The notes beneath the pieces were generated by a model that was not told where the DNA came from, ran no database searches, and worked only from the letters and a program-made list of their open reading frames with translations. The translations under genes and the position numbers were made by a program. DNA of 64,000 nucleotides from an uncultured Pseudomonadota bacterium (GTDB lineage Bacteria; Pseudomonadota; Alphaproteobacteria; JACZXZ01): the NCBI GenBank assembly GCA_963749075.1, contig CAVVLJ010000020.1, forward strand, positions 224,001 through 288,000. Direction: 5' to 3'. Numbering within the stretch: the first letter of the stretch is position 1; each line of letters starts with the position of its first letter. This document shows, one piece after another, positions 959-21,438 of the stretch.

Positions 959-2161
959 TCACTTCGGCGCGAAGTGCGTGACTTCGATCTTGCCGCCCTT
1001 CTTGATGTCGACCACGTCGAAGTTGAAGACCTCCTCGCCGCTCGCGTCGAAGCGCATGTTCCACAGCCCTCGTAGGTGAAGGAGAGCAGGGCCGCCTTCA
1101 CCTTCGCCACGTCGTCGACGCGTCCCCGCCTTCTGCATCGCCTCGACCAGCATGAAGACGTGGTCGTAGCAGGAGGAGGAGCAGAGCGGCGCCTGGTCGT
1201 AGGGGAAATCGGCCGTCTTGTAGAAGGCCTTGTAGTCGGCGATGAACTTCTTGACCTTGGGCTCGCTCTTCTCCGCCTCCTCGAAGTATTTGGGGATGTA
1301 GATGATGTAGTCGTCGAGCGCCTCCTTGTTCTTGAGCCCGGGGCCGAGCGAGCCGCGCACCAGCCAGAAACGCGTCAGGCCCGACCTCGGTCGCCTGGCG
1401 CACGATGTCGTAGAGCACGGCGTCGGTGTAGCCGGGGAAGAGATAGTCGGGCTTGGAGGCCGCGATCTTGGCGAGCACGCTCGAGAAGTCGGTGGTGCCG
1501 GGCTCGAACCACTCCTCCTCGAGGGCGATGCCCTCCTTTTGGAAGAGCGGCGCGTAGATGTCGCGCGCGACGTGGCCGAAGGCGTCGTTCTGCATGAGCA
1601 TCGCCACTTTCTTGGCGCCGCGCTCCTTGAGGTTCTGCCACCATGAGCGAGCCGAAGCCGGCGGCTCCCGCGTCCCAGTTCCAGCGAGCGGATGAGATAG
1701 CCGTGCTGCGGCTTGCCGAGATCGAAGTGGATCGCCGTGGCGCCGCCGATCAGGAGGAACTTGCCGCCGAAGCCGGTGGCGTAGGGCTCGATGCCCTTGT
1801 AGATGTTGGTGAGGAAGGGCCCGAAGACGAAGCGCACCTGCTCCTCTTCCAGCATCTTCTTGAGCTCGATGAGCGCCTGCTGGGGATTGCCCTGGGTGTC
1901 GGGGTTGAGGAGCTCGAGCGTGTAGGTCTTGCCGGCGACCGCGAAGCCGCCCGCCTTGTTGATCTCGTCGACCGCCATGCGCATGCCTTGGGCCGACATC
2001 CAGCCGTAGGTGTTGAGGGGGCCGGTCTGCGCCTCGATCTCGCCGATCTTGACGGTGTTCTGTGCCTCGGCCGACGCCAGTCCCAAGCCGATGACGGCGG
2101 CAAGGCCCGCGAGCGCCGTCGCGATCCTTGCCGGCCAGTGCCGCTCTTGGAAGCACCCCAT
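959..2161 (-). pseudogene. LivK/LivJ-type ABC substrate-binding protein with about five single-base indels (pseudogene or sequencing errors)
   Basis: Collinear with the intact paralog at 2724-3920; frame switches near 1072, 1122, 1380, 1638 and 1686. Confidence 0.8.
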
Positions 2162-2333
2162 GTCGTCCTCCCCCGGCTGTTCGCCGTCTATTATGTCAGT
2201 GATATTTCAAGCCGGCGGCCACGCTACCATCCCGGCCCTCACCATGCAAGCGAGGGAGAAGGCGGAGGCCGTCGAGACCGGCTATGGTGGCGCGGGGCAT
2301 CGCTCGCACAAGCATCGGCAGAGGAACGGCACC

Positions 2334-2516
2334 ATGAAAGTGAAAATCTTCCGCGTCTTCGGGACACTCGAGGCGAACAATCTTGAAAGCGAGATCAACG
2401 CCTGGCTCGGCAAGCTGCCGGCCACGTCGCGCATCGTCTGGACGAATACGACATCCTGCGCCGTGGGCCAGCAAAGCCAGGCTTCCGTGATCGTTGCGAT
2501 CTGGTACGAGGGGTAA
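2334..2516 (+). CDS. Small 60-aa protein resembling the Cse60/DUF2758 family
   Basis: AGAGGA RBS; MKVKIF...LESEINAWL...VIVAIWYE pattern. Confidence 0.55.
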   Translation: MKVKIFRVFGTLEANNLESEINAWLGKLPATSRIVWTNTTSCAVGQQSQASVIVAIWYEG

Positions 2517-2579
2517 GCCGCCTCAGTGGCCGACCCGGAAAGGAATGCGTTATTTTCGATGAATTGTTGGCCACCCGCC

Positions 2580-2658
2580 GTCATTCCCGCGAAGGCGGGA
2601 ATCCACGGTTGGTCCGATACCTGGCGTCAAAGATGGACCCCGCTTTCGCGGGGGTGAC
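2580..2658. repeat. REP/RPE-type palindromic element
   Basis: GTCATTCCCGCGAAGGCGGGAATCCA...TGGACCCCGCTTTCGCGGGGGTGAC inverted arms. Confidence 0.85.
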
Positions 2659-2723
2659 GAATGGCTCGTTGAAAATCAACGATCGGCTTCGAGCGAGGCT
2701 CTCGGATCGGGACGGCGCTCCCC

Positions 2724-3920
2724 TCACTTCGGCGTCACGTGGTCGACCGTGATCTTGCCGCCCTTCTTGAGATCGACGATGTCGAAGTTGAAGACCTCCT
2801 CGCCCGTCTTGTCGAAGTGGAGGGTCCAGAGGCCCGAATAGCTGAGCGAGAGGAGGGCTGCCTTCACCTTCGCCACGTCGTCGACGCTGCCGGCCTCTTT
2901 CATCGCCTCCACCAGCATGAAGACGTGGTCGTAGCAGGAGGAGGAGCAGAGCGGCGCCTGGTCGTAGGGAAACTCGGTCTTGTAGTAGGCCTTGTAGGCA
3001 GCGATGAATTGCTTGACCTTGGGCTCGCTCTTCTCGGCCTCCTCGAAATATTTCGGCACATAGACCACGTAGTCGTCGAGCGAATCCTTGTTCTTGAGGC
3101 CGGGCCCGAGCGAGCCGCGGATGAGCCAGAAGCGCGTGATGCCGAGCTCGCTCGCCTGGCGCACGATGTCGTAGAGGGCTGCGTCGGTATAGCCGGGGAA
3201 GAGGTAGTCGGGCTTGGCGGCCGCGATCTTGGCGAGCGTCGCCGAGAAGTCGGTGGTGCCCGGCTCGAACCACTCCTCGGAAAGGGCGATGCCGCTCTCC
3301 TTGAAGATCGGCGCGTAGATGTCGCGCGCCACGTGGCCGGCCGCATCGTTCTGCATCAGCATGGCGACCGTCTTGACGCCGTGCTGCTTCAAATAGTCGA
3401 CCATGAGCGAGCCGAAGCCCGAGGCGCCCGCGTCCCAGTTCCAGCTCCGCATCAGATAGCCGTGCTGAGGCTTGCCGAGGTCGAAGTGGATGCCGGTGGC
3501 GCCGCCGAGCATGAGGAACTGGCCGTCATGGGCGTTGGCATAGGCCTCGATGCCCTTGTAGACGTTGGTGAGGAACGGCCCGAAGACGAACTTGACGTGC
3601 TCCTCGTCGATCAGCTTCTTGAACTCGATGAGGCCCTGCTGCGGATTGCCCTGGGTGTCGGGATTGAGGAGCTGGAGCTTGTACGTCTTGCCGGCGACCG
3701 CGAAGCCGCCCGCCTTGTTGATCTCGTCGACCGCCATGCGCGTGCCCTGGGTGGACATCCAGCCGTAGGTGGTGAGCGCTCCGGTCTGCGCCTCGATCTC
3801 GCCGAGCTTGACGACTTCCTGCGCCGCGGCCGGCGCGGGCGCCAAGAGTGCCGCAAGCGCCGCGGCGGCAAGCGTGCCCGCGACGAAATCTCTCCACTGC
3901 CGGTGACGGCTCGACCGCAT
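2724..3920 (-). CDS. Branched-chain amino acid-type ABC substrate-binding protein
   Basis: Signal peptide; KLGEIEAQTG, EINKAGG, DFSATLAKI motifs; GGAGG RBS. Confidence 0.9.
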   Translation of the reverse strand: MRSSRHRQWRDFVAGTLAAAALAALLAPAPAAAQEVVKLGEIEAQTGALTTYGWMSTQGTRMAVDEINKAGGFAVAGKTYKLQLLNPDTQGNPQQGLIEFKKLIDEEHVKFVFGPFLTNVYKGIEAYANAHDGQFLMLGGATGIHFDLGKPQHGYLMRSWNWDAGASGFGSLMVDYLKQHGVKTVAMLMQNDAAGHVARDIYAPIFKESGIALSEEWFEPGTTDFSATLAKIAAAKPDYLFPGYTDAALYDIVRQASELGITRFWLIRGSLGPGLKNKDSLDDYVVYVPKYFEEAEKSEPKVKQFIAAYKAYYKTEFPYDQAPLCSSSCYDHVFMLVEAMKEAGSVDDVAKVKAALLSLSYSGLWTLHFDKTGEEVFNFDIVDLKKGGKITVDHVTPK

Positions 3921-4060
3921 GGCGTCCTCCCTCAAGCGATTTTCTGTTCGCAGCGTGCTATCTTAGTGGTATCTTAGCGCGATGACAACGCTAGCACCGC
4001 CGCCTCCTCCTGGCAAGCGGCGGCGGAGTGCAACGGCGGACTGCGAGGGAGCGAGGAGCC

Positions 4061-15320: not shown

Positions 15321-15570
15321 TCGGACGGGCTCTTCAGTCCCGGGCAGATTGCCAGCGCGCTGCGCCCGATCGCGAGATCTCCAGCAGTTTCTTCGCGGCG
15401 CAGATCTCCATCGGGCGCCGGCGTCATCACGGCAGGCACCGCCCGCCGCCGGTAGCATGCTCTCTCGCGGCACAGAGAGCAATCCCGCGCGTCGGTAATG
15501 GTACAGTTTGAATTTCTGGGTCTCTCGCGCCCCGCTCCCCTCGTGACCGGAGCCGTGCCATACTTAGAGT

Positions 15571-15795
15571 ATGGCCATCAAGCGACTCAAACGTCCGCGC
15601 GACCCGCTCCAGCTCGCCAAGCTCATTGGTGATATTGCGACTGGGCAAGTTGCTGATAGGGCAGAAGATACCCGAAGCGCCGCCGCCGTCGAATTAGGCC
15701 AAAAAGGCGGCAAAGCGCGTGCAGCAAAATTGTCAAAAGAAAGACGAAAAGAGATCGCAAGTGCCGCAGCTCGGCGTAGATGGGGACATAAGTAA
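15571..15795 (+). CDS. Small basic protein at the IS end
   Basis: KRPRDPLQLAKLIGDIATG...LGQKGGKARAAKLS..RRKEIA..AA..RW; recalled as a frequent neighbour of such transposases. Confidence 0.75.
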   Translation: MAIKRLKRPRDPLQLAKLIGDIATGQVADRAEDTRSAAAVELGQKGGKARAAKLSKERRKEIASAAARRRWGHK

Positions 15796-15801
15796 TCTTG
15801 G

Positions 15802-16383
15802 TTAACTGCGCTTTGGGAGGAGCGGATTATCAGGTAAATTTGGAAGTGGCAGCGTCGGTATTACAAGTGCTGTGCCGGCCCCAAGACCGGGAAATGGGAA
15901 TAGCGGATTAGCAGCTCCCGCTGATTGTGGTTCCACCCGCAATGTTCCAAGTCTAATGATCTTATCGCCATAATCGGCGCGGACTTTAATTCGTCCCGCC
16001 TGAATCAAAATCATTGGTGACATAACAAACAGCGTGTTTATAGTGAAAAGCTCTGGCAAGTCTGGGTCAGGAGGCAGCGTAGTGGTCTTAAAAGTTTCGT
16101 CCACTGTCGCTTTATTAGCAGGAATTTCTCCGCCTACATTTGGTTTATCGGGGGCGTTACCGGGCAAGAAAATTTTGATTGTGATGCTCCAATCCCGATT
16201 TTCTGCCATTTTACGCGGTTCATTAAAGGTCGTCGCAATTCCGAACTTTGGCACCACCATTGGAAAAGCCGGCACGTAAATAACGGCGTTGTAAACGCCG
16301 ATGTAACTTGCCTTGTTACCAACCTCCGAACGAATGTCGTCACAAAAGATGGACGAGCCAAACGGTTCATCAAATTTGGACAT
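15802..16383 (-). CDS. Hypothetical protein, DUF6941-like
   Basis: IFCDDIRSEVGNKASYIGVY N-terminal motif; starts 4 nt after upstream stop. Confidence 0.65.
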   Translation of the reverse strand: MSKFDEPFGSSIFCDDIRSEVGNKASYIGVYNAVIYVPAFPMVVPKFGIATTFNEPRKMAENRDWSITIKIFLPGNAPDKPNVGGEIPANKATVDETFKTTTLPPDPDLPELFTINTLFVMSPMILIQAGRIKVRADYGDKIIRLGTLRVEPQSAGAANPLFPFPGLGAGTALVIPTLPLPNLPDNPLLPKRS

Positions 16384-16387
16384 TTGT

Positions 16388-16840
16388 TCAGCCTGACGTA
16401 GGTGTCCCCAGCAGATCACTGTATGCAATGCCGGTGGCGCCCCTAGTGGTTAGCATTGCCGCGTTAGGACCCGTGATATAGATCACGGCTCCTGCTGATG
16501 ACGAGGATAACCAATCAGGGTGCCGATAATTGCGCGGAGGCTCCTCAAGGGGGTGGACGATACTGTATCCTGCTTCCGCATGCGAAATGGCAAAAAGCAG
16601 ATCGCTCAAGGTATCAAGGCCCCAATTGCCCGGCGCACCGATTAAACGACACACAACGTCTGGTCGCTTATTCATCCGACGCGCCAGTTCAGCCTGAGTA
16701 AGGCCGCTCTTCTTGAATTCATTCAGCACAAGATCATGCACGCGGCTCCTGTTCCTAGCCTGAAAATAGGCGAACTCCCAAGCCGGGATCGCCCCTGTTC
16801 CCGTGGGGCTAAACGGGCTCAAAGTTGGAGAGGTAGTCAT
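16388..16840 (-). CDS. XRE-type HTH protein, putative antitoxin with C-terminal tail
   Basis: SGLTQAELARRMNKRPDVVCRLIGAPGNWGLDTLSDLLFAI. Confidence 0.75.
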   Translation of the reverse strand: MTTSPTLSPFSPTGTGAIPAWEFAYFQARNRSRVHDLVLNEFKKSGLTQAELARRMNKRPDVVCRLIGAPGNWGLDTLSDLLFAISHAEAGYSIVHPLEEPPRNYRHPDWLSSSSAGAVIYITGPNAAMLTTRGATGIAYSDLLGTPTSG

Positions 16841-17345
16841 TGAGGCTGGCTCCGTGGAACGGTTGATGTGGATGAAAGAGATTCCTCCATCTGGCCTTAC
16901 ATCGTTCGATCTCATCGCGCCAATCTTTGTCTTCAGCCAAATTCTCCCGAAAGTTAACGGTCAGCGCCACGAATAGATCTTTATCTGCAAAGCCACCAAG
17001 CACTCTGATCCCCGGTTTCGGATCAACGCATCGAATATCAAAAATGTCGTCCCTGGGCGGGTCTGTCCGTGCGACCCGGGTGGCCTTTGGCTTCTTATAG
17101 GGATCGTCGGCGACGGTTATGCGATCCCCCTGGGTCCAGGCATCCAAATAGGCTCGCATCTGCGTTAGCCGCCGTCCCTCTGTTGTCACCGGCCATGGCG
17201 GGTGTGCGACCTTATTGACCTCCTCGGAAACAAACAGCTCCCGTATCACCTTAGCGCTCGGAATGAGCGGCGGCAGGAAGAACAGCCGAGGAGGCACCTC
17301 GCTGACACGGTTATTGATTCCATCGCGTATTGACATATAAGTCAA
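16809..17345 (-). CDS. Hypothetical protein, putative RelE/HigB-like toxin
   Basis: DIFDIR....PGIRVLGGF...DLFVAL...R beta-strand pattern; overlaps downstream HTH gene. Confidence 0.5.
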   Translation of the reverse strand: MTYMSIRDGINNRVSEVPPRLFFLPPLIPSAKVIRELFVSEEVNKVAHPPWPVTTEGRRLTQMRAYLDAWTQGDRITVADDPYKKPKATRVARTDPPRDDIFDIRCVDPKPGIRVLGGFADKDLFVALTVNFRENLAEDKDWRDEIERCKARWRNLFHPHQPFHGASLNDYLSNFEPV

Positions 17346-17430
17346 TGAGAGAAATATTAAAGGACCTTACGCGCGATGGTAGCGCAATGCAGCTAGTAGA
17401 GTCCCGCATACATTCGTCAAAAGAAATTGC

Positions 17431-17459
17431 TTGACGCTAAGCATAAAATGACAGATACT
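17431..17459 (+). promoter_or_regulatory. Putative sigma70 promoter for the transposase
   Basis: TTGACG-17 bp-GATACT, ATG 6 nt downstream. Confidence 0.5.
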
Positions 17460-17465
17460 AGGGGC

Positions 17466-18416
17466 ATGAACAAATTGTCCCCTGAGAAGCGCGCCCAAAT
17501 CCTCGGCATGATGGCCGAAGGGGTTTCGTTGCGGTCGATCACACGCCTAACTGGCGTGAGCCGGACAACCTCCCTCAAGCTGCTGGTCGATGTCGGCAAC
17601 GCCTTCTCGGACTATCAGGATCGCGCGCTTCGCAACTTTCCGTGCAAGCGCGTGAAGGTTGACGAAATTTGGGCGTTCGTCGGGATGAAGGCGAAGAACG
17701 TTCCCGAGGAAAGGAAGGGCGAATACGGCATCGGGGACGTTTGGACATGGACGGCAATTGATGCGGATACGAAGCTCGTGCCGTCCTGGTTCGTCGGGAA
17801 CCGCGATGCCGAGCACGCGCGGACCCTCCTAAGCGATCTTGCAGGCCGCATGGCCGGTCGCATCCAACTAACGTCAGACGCCATGCGCGCCTATCGGGAC
17901 GCGGTACATGACGCGTTCCTAGACGAGATCGACTATGCCCAGCTCGTCAAGATTTACGGCGAAGACCCGGAAAGTATGAAGGGGCGCTATAGTCCCGCCG
18001 AGCGCATCGGCTGCGAGCGCCAGAAGATCAGCGGGAACGCTGATCCAAAGCATATCAGCACTTCTCACGTCGAGCGGCAGAACCTCAATATCAGAATGGG
18101 GCTGCGCCGCTTCACGCGCTTGACCAATGCATTTTCAAAGAAGCTCGAAAACCATGTGCACGGCCTCGCCATCTACTTTATGTACTACAACTTCGTTCGC
18201 ATCCATCAAACATTGCGCGTCACCCCCGCGATGGCAGCCGGCGTAACCGACAAGCTTTGGGAGCTAAGCGATTTGGTTCGGATCGTGGAAGAATACGAGC
18301 GTGAGCCCGTCTCGGACGCCGACGCACCATCCGATATAGATCGCCTTTTGAGCGACGCCGACGGCTATATGCGACGCCCAGGACACCCCGACCAGCACGG
18401 CCCGCAGCGAACCTAA
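17466..18416 (+). CDS. IS1-family DDE transposase (single ORF)
   Basis: N-terminal HTH (GVSLRSITRLTGVSRTT); VDEIWAFV, TSD, VERQNLNIR; FSKKLENH. Confidence 0.9.
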   Translation: MNKLSPEKRAQILGMMAEGVSLRSITRLTGVSRTTSLKLLVDVGNAFSDYQDRALRNFPCKRVKVDEIWAFVGMKAKNVPEERKGEYGIGDVWTWTAIDADTKLVPSWFVGNRDAEHARTLLSDLAGRMAGRIQLTSDAMRAYRDAVHDAFLDEIDYAQLVKIYGEDPESMKGRYSPAERIGCERQKISGNADPKHISTSHVERQNLNIRMGLRRFTRLTNAFSKKLENHVHGLAIYFMYYNFVRIHQTLRVTPAMAAGVTDKLWELSDLVRIVEEYEREPVSDADAPSDIDRLLSDADGYMRRPGHPDQHGPQRT

Positions 18417-18465
18417 TCATCGGAGATCGCGAGGACCCGGATTTTTTCGGCGAATCGATCACAGA

Positions 18466-19332
18466 ATGCTGAAGCGGCTGTTAAAAGCTTTTTGGGTTGC
18501 CTTGTTCGCGTGTCTGGTGCTCGGATACGTCTCTCTGGTTTGGTATGCATCACAAGCGCCCGGGTCATCGCAATACGAACGCCGCACCTACCATACCAAT
18601 GAAAAAGCCGGCCAGCGCAACCCACCCCAAACCCTTTGGGAATGGGTGACGCATGACGCAATAGCTGTCTTCACTTTCTTCCTGGCCGCCTTTACCGGCG
18701 CGCTCTTCTGGGTTTCCATCATTGAAATGCGATACCTGAGACGCGCCGATAAGACGGCACGGAAACTCGCGAAAATCACCAAACAACAGACTGCTATTTT
18801 GGCCGCTCAAGCCGATATCGCATTGAAGCAGCATGAACTCGAGCGCTTGCAGTTTATCGCCGACAAGAGGCCGAGATTGCGCATCCGGAACGTTGTTGTG
18901 AGGCCGGCAAGCGTCACGGGCTATGAGCCGACCCTTTTCCATCCCGGACAATATGTCGGTGGTCAATGCTATATCGCCAACTCTGGAGGCATCGACGCTG
19001 TTGTTGTGGAGGCTCACTGTGAGGTCTTTGTGACTAACGTTCAGCTGCCAATGGAAAGGCCCTACGAAGGGAAAAACGGCAATTCGGCGATCCGCCCAAC
19101 GATTCCTCCCGGCGGTTCTGTGCCATTCCCATTTCAGAGCGATACCATTATCAGCGAACACCAGTCGCAGGCGGTCAGGAACGGCATTGGTTATCGGCTT
19201 TACTTGCTTGGATGGGTTGAATACGAAGACATCAAGGGAGTGCGAAGACGTACTGCGTTCTGCAGGAAATATGATGCCGCCACCGGTCGCTTCGCCGCAG
19301 TAGATGACCCCGATTACGAACACGAAGAATAG
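18466..19332 (+). CDS. Hypothetical membrane-anchored passenger protein
   Basis: Two hydrophobic segments, coiled stretch, beta-rich C-terminus (GWVEYEDIKG..RRTAFC); inside IS ends. Confidence 0.65.
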   Translation: MLKRLLKAFWVALFACLVLGYVSLVWYASQAPGSSQYERRTYHTNEKAGQRNPPQTLWEWVTHDAIAVFTFFLAAFTGALFWVSIIEMRYLRRADKTARKLAKITKQQTAILAAQADIALKQHELERLQFIADKRPRLRIRNVVVRPASVTGYEPTLFHPGQYVGGQCYIANSGGIDAVVVEAHCEVFVTNVQLPMERPYEGKNGNSAIRPTIPPGGSVPFPFQSDTIISEHQSQAVRNGIGYRLYLLGWVEYEDIKGVRRRTAFCRKYDAATGRFAAVDDPDYEHEE

Positions 19333-19388
19333 GATGGCGCCGCGCGACGTTCGGGGAATTCGGCATAATTGTCGAAACTGACCCACTA

Positions 19389-21294
19389 GTGCGCCAGGAA
19401 GCTGGCGTGATCCAGCCGGTGAAAGTCCGGCCCAGGTAAGGGGTAGCGCCCGCCTGGTAGCGAGTGTTGCGCTGTGGAAGGCAACGACCACGGCGAAGCG
19501 TACACAGCGATTGTGCGGGGTGGGCTATTGAGCCGCGTAAGCAGTAATGTCGGAGGGGCCGAGGCTTTTAGTGTAGCCGAAGGCAACATGTGCGGCGCCG
19601 CTATGCGAGGCGCCGTCGCCCTACCGAGGTCGAAGACCCCATCACGCACAAAGGGAGCCCGCCGGAACCTGGGAGATCCCACGTCCGGCCAGCGGCGACA
19701 AGCCGCCCTGGTCCGCATCGGGAAGGCGAGGAGCCGTAGCCGATGACGCACGGGCGCGGGAAGTCAGACTCCGCCATAGTAGCTGGGAAGCCGACGAACA
19801 AGGCCGGGCAATCGGTTGCGGAGCCGGTGGAGCGAAGGGCGGAGGCCAAGGGGAATGCGGGCCAGCACAGCACGCGCCGGGCACAGGACCGGGAAAGCGT
19901 GTCCCATGCGCTGGATCGCATACGACAAGCGGCAAGGCAAAGGAAGAAGGAACGGTTCACCTCGCTCTTCCACCATATCACCATCAGCCTGCTCCGGCTG
20001 GCGTTCTTCGCGCTCAAGCGAGACGCCATGCCCGGCGTAGACGGGTTGACATGGCAGGACTACGAGGCAGACCTCGAGTGCAAGCTCGAGGACCTGCACG
20101 CACGGGTCCGCCGGGGAGCGTATCGGGCACTGCCGTCCCGGCGACGGTACATACCGAAACCGGACGGCCGGCAGCGCCCGCTCGCGGTCGCCGCCCTCGA
20201 GGACAAGATCGTCCAACGGGCGACCATCGCGGTGCTGAACGCGATCTACGAGGAGGACTTCCTCGGGTTCTCGTATGGCTTCCGGCCACGGCGCGGCCAG
20301 CACGATGCGCTGGACGCACTGGCGGTCGGGCTCACCAGCAAGAAGGTGAACTACGTTCTCGATGCGGACATCCGGTCCTTTTTCGACGCGGTCGATCAAA
20401 CATGGCTCGTCCGCTTCTTGGAGAACCGGATCAGTGACCCGCGTATCATCCGCCTGATCCAGAAATGGCTCAAGGCGGGCATCCTGGAAGACGGGGTCGT
20501 GACGGTGAGTGAGAGGGGGACGGGACAGGGCTCGGTGGCATCACCGCTCCTTGCCAACGTCTACCTGCACTACGTCTTCGACCTCTGGGCCGAGCGCTGG
20601 CGACGGCGCGAGGCACAGGGCGATATGATCATCGTGCGCTATGCGGACGACATCGTTGTCGGCTTCGAGCGTGAGGCCGACGCCCGACGCTTCTGGGAGG
20701 CGATGCGGGAGCGGTTGCAGGAGTTCTCGCTGACGCTGCATCCGGAAAAGACCCGCCTGATCGAGTTTGGCCGCCATGCCGCGGCCGAGCGCAAGCAGCG
20801 CGGGCTCGGTAAACCGGAAACCTTCAACTTCCTAGGCTTCACCTTCCTCTGCGGTAAATCGCGCCGCGGGAACTTCCTCCTCAAGCGGAAGACCCGGCGT
20901 GACCGCATGGTGGCCAAGCTCAAGGAGGTAAAGGGCGAACTGCGGCGGCGGATGCATCAGCCCATCCCGGTGCAAGGGACGTGGCTGCGGCAGGTCGTCA
21001 CCGGCTTCTTTGGCTATCACGCAGTGCCGACAAACTTCCCGGCACTTGCGGCCTTCCGGCGCCATGTCACCGGCCTCTGGCGGCGCACGCTCCGGCGGCG
21101 CAGCCAGAAGGACGGCTCGACCTGGGGACGGATCGAGAAGCTGGCCGACGACTTTCTCCCAAAACCCCGCATCCTTCACCCCTGGCCGAGCAAGCGCTTC
21201 GCCGTCAAACACCCGAGGTGGGAGCCGTATGCGGGAAATCCGCCCGTACGGATCTGTGCGGGGGGCGCCCAGTAATGGGCGTCCCTACCGCGAT
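19389..21294 (+). mobile_element. Group II intron
   Basis: 5' GTGCG; domain V GAGCCGTATGCGGGAAATCCGCCCGTACGGATC; domain VI ending CCCTACCGCGAT; internal RT ORF. Confidence 0.95.
19743..21275 (+). CDS. ltrA: Group II intron reverse transcriptase/maturase, no endonuclease domain
   Basis: YIPKPDGRQRPL, SYGFRP, QGSVASPLLANVYLH, RYADD, FNFLGF; no HNH motif. Confidence 0.95.
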   Translation: MTHGRGKSDSAIVAGKPTNKAGQSVAEPVERRAEAKGNAGQHSTRRAQDRESVSHALDRIRQAARQRKKERFTSLFHHITISLLRLAFFALKRDAMPGVDGLTWQDYEADLECKLEDLHARVRRGAYRALPSRRRYIPKPDGRQRPLAVAALEDKIVQRATIAVLNAIYEEDFLGFSYGFRPRRGQHDALDALAVGLTSKKVNYVLDADIRSFFDAVDQTWLVRFLENRISDPRIIRLIQKWLKAGILEDGVVTVSERGTGQGSVASPLLANVYLHYVFDLWAERWRRREAQGDMIIVRYADDIVVGFEREADARRFWEAMRERLQEFSLTLHPEKTRLIEFGRHAAAERKQRGLGKPETFNFLGFTFLCGKSRRGNFLLKRKTRRDRMVAKLKEVKGELRRRMHQPIPVQGTWLRQVVTGFFGYHAVPTNFPALAAFRRHVTGLWRRTLRRRSQKDGSTWGRIEKLADDFLPKPRILHPWPSKRFAVKHPRWEPYAGNPPVRICAGGAQ

Positions 21295-21438
21295 CCCGCG
21301 CGTCCGCCTTGGGATGGCGGCGGCTTCCGGCGATTGTCCGAAAAGCGTCATGGGCGGCCCTGCCGGAAAGCGGCCTCATGTCCGCAAACCAGCCATCGCA
21401 GGCATGGCGGCCGAAACCCCGCCCTGCCATGCGAGTTT

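Follow-up and report, generated by a model that had tools for sequence, protein, structure and literature searches.

The closest described counterpart of the element discussed here is RmInt2, a group II intron of S. meliloti GR4 that resides in both inverted repeats of the insertion sequence (IS) ISRm17 (Martinez-Rodriguez et al. 2014, PMC4615759). According to that paper, the presence of two repeats doubles the number of targets, 4 bp of pairing with exon-binding site 2 (EBS2) is enough, and the minimal target runs from −16 to +7. A second intron, RmInt1, is reported to block the spread of its IS when it inserts (PMC5894124), and the general idea that introns shelter in mobile elements has already been published (PMC7306698). 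Here we describe a group II intron that interrupts an IS1-family element within its right terminal inverted repeat, 2 bp from the tip. It lies in a 64,000-nt stretch of DNA (“the window”) from an uncultured alphaproteobacterium (assembly GCA_963749075.1, contig CAVVLJ010000020.1, positions 224,001 to 288,000). The initial annotation of the window, made from the sequence alone, named RmInt1 in an IS coding region as the precedent; this precedent stands but is incomplete, since RmInt2 had been reported in the inverted repeats of ISRm17 (PMC4615759). In the literature available to us, a search on group II introns in IS1 or in terminal inverted repeats brought up general surveys as well as the RmInt2 papers, with no report of an IS1-tip target. 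In all likelihood, the intron of the window retrohomed into the right repeat after the IS1-family element had itself inserted, reading its target through RNA, and belongs to a sub-lineage that is faithful to this site.

The intron is 1906 nt long (19389..21294, forward strand). It begins with GTGCG at 19389-19393 and ends with GCGAT, the last three bases (GAT) being 21292-21294, in keeping with the GUGYG...AY rule. Domain I matches the Rfam model RF02005 (19422-19639; 164 bits against a gathering score of 49), and RF00029 covers domains V and VI (21220-21294; 50.3 bits against 40). The open reading frame (ORF) of the intron, located in domain IV (19743..21275, forward strand), encodes a reverse transcriptase/maturase of 510 aa with YADD in its translation, and this protein matches both TIGR04416 (334 bits, cut-off 300, residues 84-453) and RVT_1 (128 bits). 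Searches of the Pfam and NCBIfam families detected no endonuclease domain in it. As judged from its sequence, the element is confirmed as an intact, compact group II intron of the RF02005 type; its ends, both ribozyme families and the protein family all agree with the boundaries proposed in the initial annotation, whose coordinates were correct throughout. RF02005 had no match in 14 control genomes.

Without the intron, the host element measures 3.9 kb (15494-19388 plus 21295-21296). An exact 8-bp duplication, CGCGCGTC, encloses the whole element, intron included, the left copy (15486..15493) being identical to the right copy (21297..21304). Directly after the left copy comes the left terminal inverted repeat, GGTAATGGTACAGTTTGAA (15494..15512, forward strand), which starts with GGTAATGGTACAGTTT (15494-15509) and is intron-free. 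The right repeat has been split. Its inner 17 nt form the 5' exon (19370..19388, forward strand), which ends in AAACTGACCCACTA (19375-19388), and its terminal CC (21295..21296, forward strand), severed by the intron, is followed at once by the right duplication. Left and rebuilt right repeats are identical at 13 of the first 16 positions. Between the repeats lies a single-ORF transposase of 316 aa (17466..18416, forward strand) that scores above the cut-off for PF03400 (33.8 bits, cut-off 24.1). Its best NCBIfam match is NF033558 (IS1), at 70 bits and under the cut-off of 100, and its plasmid homologues, at 52-59% identity, are annotated as “IS1 family transposase”. The transposase, the repeats and the 8-bp duplication, the latter in the 8-9 bp range expected of IS1, together support the assignment of the host to the IS1 family, and with it the view of the initial annotation that the intron sits 2 bp from the tip of an IS1-family repeat. 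The element departs from the classical two-frame insA/insB layout and length of ~0.8 kb, having a single-ORF transposase, a length of 3.9 kb and passenger genes. Single-ORF and passenger-carrying IS1 subgroups have been described; our literature search on them yielded nothing.

How would such an intron read its target? EBS1 (UAGUGU; 19569..19574, forward strand) is assigned to the loop of the hairpin GGCT-TTTAGTGT-AGCC (19563-19578), and TTTAGTGT is indeed the hairpin loop in the Rfam alignment. EBS2 (CAGU; 19542..19545, forward strand), written CAGT in the DNA, falls within the internal loop 19536-19549 according to the Rfam structure line. EBS3 is assigned to a single G (19632..19632, forward strand), with the first base of the 3' exon, C21295, as its partner (intron-binding site 3, IBS3). 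The corresponding sites in the 5' exon are IBS1, CACTA at 19384-19388, and IBS2, ACTG at 19377-19380. In the window, EBS1 pairs at 5 of 6 positions, the −6 position being a C opposite U.

These placements were examined by covariation among sibling introns, namely the best 80 of 552 confirmed relatives, with proteins 72-81% identical to that of the window. Local alignment gave clean intron ends for 64 of the 80; the other 16 were left out as truncated, rearranged or ambiguous. For EBS1, 59 introns were compared, namely that of the window and the 58 siblings for which 12 nt or more of exon was available. Against exon positions −6 to −1, all six positions pair in 41 introns, five in 15, four in 2 and three in 1, so that 56 of 59 pair at 5 or more positions even though 33 different EBS1 sequences are represented; shuffled combinations of introns and exons gave a mean of 2.6 pairs. 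For EBS2, the loop and exon positions −16 to −7 of the siblings form a longest helix of 5.1 on average, compared with 3.6 in controls. For EBS3, the column of G19632 is Watson-Crick complementary to the +1 base in 61 of 64 introns, the runner-up column reaching 55%. Covariation across 59-64 sibling introns thus supports the placement of all three sites, including the EBS1 loop with its TAGTG and the EBS2 site, both of which had been proposed from the letters alone. Because EBS3 pairs with C21295, the terminal C of the IS belongs to the target that is read by RNA. The left repeat, which the initial annotation had suggested as a second possible target with one wobble, does have the corresponding form: its opposite strand reads AAACTGTACCATTA/CC (the slash marks the insertion site here and below), with ACTG at an equal distance, and is a near-cognate target with a single C-to-T change in IBS1 that can be accommodated as a G-U pair.

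Three full copies of the intron are present in the same genome; over their 1906 nt the differences number 0, 1 and 3, and the ORF is open in each. All three sit behind an IS1-like repeat, with exons ..GAAACTGACCCACTA/CC, ..CAAACGGTGCCACTA/CC and ..CAAACTGACCCACTA/CC; the 3' exon starts with CC in each, and unrelated DNA follows. Within the 300 nt upstream of each copy, only 179-183 of 300 positions are shared between copies. The hosts also differ. The copy on contig C20 is that of the window, in a full element. The host on contig C4 is a derivative, with a transposase remnant 63% identical over residues 1-126 and an empty other end. The host on contig C17 is a decayed remnant beside rml genes, with a 25-residue trace of the transposase and no partner repeat within 8 kb. 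Because the introns are near-identical while their hosts and upstream DNA differ strongly, these insertions are independent events. Near-identical copies (0-3 nt) in different hosts are also indirect evidence of splicing and retrohoming. Either end of an element can be used: the window copy occupies the end lying downstream of the transposase gene; the C4 copy is at the opposite end, upstream of that gene, and the copy in the metagenome locus L109 is likewise at the other end. In addition, a 57-nt 5' intron fragment on contig C16 stands behind a similar repeat, and in the sister genome G006, of the same genus, an identical intron 5' end follows ..TTCAAACTGAGACACTA at a contig edge. The genome has 168 empty CACTA/CC 7-mers, and occupied sites are found solely in a repeat-like context; repeat-like sites are occupied in 3/10 cases and others in 0/161, a contrast that depends on a context rule set post hoc and is no independent test. 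The intron sense strand is the G-rich strand in all three full copies, as would fit insertion into the lagging-strand template, but the skew is very weak (0.002-0.01) and the C16 fragment is reversed.

Beyond this genus, metagenome contigs were scanned with the 25-nt EBS1 hairpin, which gave 80 loci from 92 stretches, 70 of them with at least 20 nt of 5' exon. Among these 70 loci there are 54 distinct 34-nt exons, with the consensus TTCAAACTGAGaCACTA/CC and an information content below 0.45 bit from +3 onward, and the 3' exon begins with CC in 20 of 23 copies. The metagenome introns are 78-97% identical to that of the window (median 84%; 68 loci with at least 600 aligned nt), so the site preference is old and is not the outcome of a single recent burst. 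ORF-deleted derivatives are found at the same target: one of 647 nt has no ORF (L142) and two are partly deleted (L109 and L152). In one host, of 96 bp, both a partner repeat and an 8-bp duplication are present. A one-off ectopic insertion that happened to fall in a repeat, with no site preference, would be compatible with a window EBS2 helix of just 4 bp and with the fact that group II introns do retrotranspose ectopically. Such an event is hardly credible as an account of the same position in all three full copies, the fragment, the sister genome and 54 metagenome sites.

Two further observations concern the structure of metagenome relatives. A joint that skips 19941-21199 reaches a summed depth of 255 in the contigs of one soil DNA run, where the ORF region is at ~40-50, and the same joint is present in one RNA library. 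At the locus L145, what follows the intron as its 3' exon is immediately the 5' end of a further group II intron, the two standing in tandem, as has been reported for head-to-tail products of RmInt2.

Intron-free forms of the target are also available for comparison. A 4.2-kb element on a Hoeflea plasmid (L204) and a 2.6-kb element on an Acidiphilium plasmid (L205) each contain an “IS1 family transposase” together with passenger genes, are flanked by 8-bp duplications and have no intron. Their termini read exactly GGTAGTGTCTCAGTTTGAA ... TTCAAACTGAGACA(C/T)TACC, which is the consensus 19-mer as perfect inverted repeats. From the sequences of these annotated elements, the consensus 19-mer is a genuine IS1-family terminus. 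Empty 19-mers occur 45 times in 29 of 401 sampled genomes of the class, often as convergent pairs 0.8-3.5 kb apart, and a reversed control pattern occurs 0 times. These data bear on whether the intron homes independently at all. Instead, it could be carried by the IS, or the repeat-like 5' exon could be copied as part of the retroelement, either of which would explain why an identical 17 nt always stands ahead of the intron. However, the 19-mer exists without the intron, bounding IS1-family transposase genes as paired inverted termini that have 8-bp duplications; in the window, the right repeat has a matching intron-free counterpart on the left, and the whole element is enclosed by the duplication; and nearly identical introns are found in hosts that are strongly unlike. 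Carriage or copying of this kind is therefore very improbable.

There are several observations that weigh against independent, site-faithful homing as the explanation for these patterns. First, the joint 19388->21295, which would mark a spliced or an empty site, was found in none of four sequencing runs; this is no evidence either way. Contigs from an RNA library do cover parts of the intron at 92-99% identity, with DNA or relatives as a possible source. Second, the metagenome loci were selected by their EBS1 hairpin, which fixes IBS1 (−6 to −1) by construction. Because this selection presets IBS1, the independent evidence lies in the rest of the repeat and in the end of conservation at +2. 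Third, the transposase is seldom seen: an IS1-like remnant lies just upstream, on the same strand, in only 8 metagenome loci, and a Pfam search of 105 upstream ORFs, taken from 35 loci, found PF03400 in none. Only 5 of the 54 sites gave a partner repeat, in contigs that are short (median upstream length 645 nt). Because the Pfam search found no IS1 transposase and partner repeats are few, many metagenome hosts are probably small non-autonomous elements or solo remnants. Fourth, in a group of five loci with the exon AAACTGCGTCCCTA/CC, 43 nt after an ORF of the beta-lactamase family, EBS1 pairs at only 4 of 6 positions, and this may be an ectopic site. Fifth, the 4-bp EBS2 helix of the window (CAGU-ACUG) is not remarkable on its own, and the target of the C17 copy breaks even that pairing. 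Finally, the occupied form appears in 2 of the 401 reference genomes, that of the window and its sister, and so in one genus only.

Could insertion instead be coupled to transposition? Just after IS1 strand transfer, the intron might reverse-splice into the transferred strand of the fresh intermediate, with the target 3'-OH across the 8-nt repair gap acting as the primer and substituting for the missing endonuclease. The case for this is purely geometric: the strand that carries the insertion site has the IS terminus as its 3' end, and 2 nt of IS together with a gap of 8 nt, matching the 8-bp duplications observed, would place a free 3'-OH opposite +11. Endonuclease-carrying introns nick the opposite strand ~10-11 nt downstream of the insertion site, which is near that 3'-OH. 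Conservation of the target also stops exactly at the IS tip, and relaxase nicking has been reported to stimulate group II intron retrotransposition (PMC7306698). If coupling did occur, new IS copies could be captured and silenced on landing. Against it, the C17 copy differs from that of the window by 1 nt and lies in a decayed remnant that is incapable of recent transposition; many metagenome hosts resemble remnants or tiny elements; and RmInt2 homes into repeats on plasmid targets without transposition (PMC4615759). Hence, coupling to transposition seems improbable, and homing into an IS1-family element already in place is the explanation we prefer.

The specialization for IS1 ends does not extend to all relatives of the intron. 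At 72-81% protein identity, the siblings differ from the intron of the window in both EBS1 and target. A tblastn search found an IS1-like transposase beside 0 of 80 sibling loci, and a Pfam search found an IS1 transposase in 0 of 150 flank ORFs from 42 loci; the Pfam scan was confined to these 42, and 48 flank ORFs from 18 further loci were left out. Transposases of other families lie within 1.8 kb in 13 of the 42 scanned loci (IS66, ISL3, IS481-like, IS256, IS5-like, ISAzo13, IS91, IS630 and IS110), and the remaining scanned siblings are found among ordinary genes, often in short repeated sequences. L073 is the sole sibling whose exon looks like an IS1-type repeat. Because the wider 72-81% clade occupies unrelated sites, the specialization is confined to one EBS lineage, and the data support its assignment to that sub-lineage and not to the whole reverse transcriptase clade. 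The initial annotation had inferred that the intron lineage specializes in IS1-type ends, and had suggested a comparison of the junctions of close homologs. For introns that share this EBS1 the idea holds, with the copies in the genome, the fragment and the copy in the sister genome at an IS1-type tip and 54 metagenome sites sharing the repeat consensus; for the wider reverse transcriptase clade, whose members at 72-81% identity sit in unrelated sites, it fails.

From these data, the following course of events can be proposed. The IS1-family element would have inserted first, and the intron would have retrohomed afterwards into its right terminal inverted repeat. The target is read mainly by RNA-DNA pairing, with EBS1 contacting the last 5-6 nt upstream of the insertion site, the short EBS2 (CAGU) contacting ACUG at −12 to −9, and EBS3 (G19632) contacting the C at +1. 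Because the recognized site (approximately −17 to +2) lies wholly within the IS end, any such IS copy would be a target, whatever its flanking DNA, and each element would offer two targets, on opposite strands. Because the intron protein has no endonuclease domain, cDNA synthesis is probably primed by the nascent DNA strand of a replication fork, the route established for RmInt1 and RmInt2. The sub-lineage with this set of EBS motifs keeps to the IS1-end site in many bacteria, ORF-deleted copies included.

What might the consequences of insertion at an IS tip be? First, given the mode of action of DDE transposases, once 1.9 kb of intron sets the cleaved tip apart from the part of the repeat that is bound by the transposase, transposition from that end should stop; the suggestion of the initial annotation that the IS is immobilized and its cargo locked in place is a reasonable one. 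If the insert truly disables the end, such introns would be natural brakes on IS1-type elements and would fix the passenger genes in place. Second, the intron represents a second class in IS terminal repeats, and at the extreme tip the whole of the recognized site is derived from the IS. Third, the 54 natural replicate sites, with introns 78-97% identical, could be used to separate the contribution of RNA reading from those of the protein and the IS. Fourth, a compact ribozyme with a simple target is of possible interest for intron retargeting.

Small non-autonomous elements of ~150-250 bp with IS1-like ends also occur in the genome (C14:42173-42415, C20:455409-455563, C21:386429-386583 and C17:650597-650751, with others at C16:244917, C17:1123598 and C22:5047). 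Several of them end in CACTG/CC rather than CACTA/CC and are unoccupied; the CACTA form in the sister genome is occupied. A weaker idea is that the CACTG/CC tips may be escapes from the intron.

In addition to its transposase, the window element has five ORFs without an assigned function. A small ORF of 74 aa beside the left repeat (15571..15795, forward strand) has no Pfam, NCBIfam or PADLOC match; an ORF at 51% identity to it (E 8e-17) lies in the 810-bp element that bears the intron at the metagenome locus L109. Three overlapping or adjacent passenger ORFs follow on the reverse strand (15802-16428, 16388-16915 and 16809-17345; together 15802..17345), in a stretch of low G+C (0.50-0.57, versus 0.65-0.72 around it). 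No family was found for these three, the Pfam search covering 16388-16915 and 16809-17345 but not 15802-16428, and the sole match of the 16388-16915 ORF is a weak one to the PADLOC family PDC-M64C (E 2.8e-4). A passenger ORF of 288 aa (18466..19332, forward strand), with no Pfam, NCBIfam or PADLOC family, lies between the transposase gene and the right repeat. In this IS1 subgroup, passenger genes inside the repeats are seen both in the window and in the Hoeflea element, which has an XRE-family regulator together with hypothetical genes.

Group II introns of other kinds were also encountered. Five copies of a second intron family are present in the genome (C2:107686-107942, C4:504826-505082, C22:40-295, C21:567841-568096 and, on the reverse strand, C17:863162-863417). 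They score just 49-56 bits against RF02005 and start with GTGCGCCGTGAC after exons ending in ..GGGT, and one of them stands directly after a GC-rich hairpin. Some of the siblings with a different EBS1 are found time and again at short repeated sites of other kinds, in many metagenome-assembled genomes (L032, L039, L041, L047, L055, L056, L066, L067, L075-L077, L082 and L083; L031 and L034-L036). One such site, ..GGGGTAGACCGGA/AGT, is conserved on both sides, and another is GTAGGGTGGGC/AAATCGC. On the Aminobacter plasmid pSR4 (L094), a 76%-identical sibling lies between the resolvase gene belonging to one Tn3-family transposon and a second Tn3-family transposase gene. The S. meliloti GR4 plasmid pRmeGR4b (L201, record 63810-67973) has a broken intron of the RF02005 type (145 bits), whose protein is 50% identical to that of the window and contains 3 in-frame TGA stops, on the same plasmid as an intact RmInt1. 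A Klebsiella pneumoniae plasmid (L095, NZ_CP089007.1, locus 2138-4046) has a sibling intron with 61% protein identity just upstream of umuD, after the SOS-box-like sequence TACTGGTTATACATACAGT; of the 5000 plasmid records with the best scores, 3716 are from Klebsiella. An IS1X3 copy beside this intron was considered as a second case and rejected, as it lies 43 bp downstream and is unrelated to the target of the intron.

How does the intron of the window compare with those already described? With regard to class, the parts of PMC3552965, PMC3753933, PMC3522654 and PMC11701678 that were accessible contain no link from RF02005 or from the intron protein to a named class, and the assignment could be shown only to be “not class D”. 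The class D signature at the C-terminus, LX3AX3PXLF[V/A]HW (PMC4615759), differs from the LADDFLPKPRILHPW of the window protein. RmInt1 on pRmeGR4b has LRKLARENPGLFVHW at this signature and an RF01999 ribozyme, versus RF02005 in the window, and the two proteins are 35% identical. The RmInt1 in ISRm2011-2, an IS630-family element, is alike in being a bacterial intron without an endonuclease that lives in a multicopy IS; unlike the intron of the window, it interrupts the transposase coding region instead of a repeat, and its class is a different one. The Klebsiella plasmid intron, which we take to be the one named Kl.pn.I5-like, falls in the same broad protein clade (61% identity), but its target is the site upstream of umuD and not IS1X3. 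Class C introns, which insert at terminators and attC sites, resemble the intron of the window in their choice of harmless, repeated, structured sites outside genes; they differ in using a hairpin and a short IBS1 with no EBS2, whereas here EBS1, EBS2 and EBS3 would all read a transposon end. The resemblance to RmInt2 extends to several features: neither protein has an endonuclease; all copies lie in IS inverted repeats, with left and right repeats providing one target each, on opposite strands; a short EBS2 helix of 4 bp is tolerated; and copies occur head to tail, here at L145. The differences are that RmInt2 belongs to class D and the intron of the window does not, that the family of the host IS is another one, and that the minimal target reported for RmInt2 spans −16 to +7, whereas conservation here stops at the physical tip of the IS, +2. 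The habit of homing into IS inverted repeats is already known from RmInt2, and what is new is a second intron with this habit, one outside class D, at the tips of IS1-family elements.

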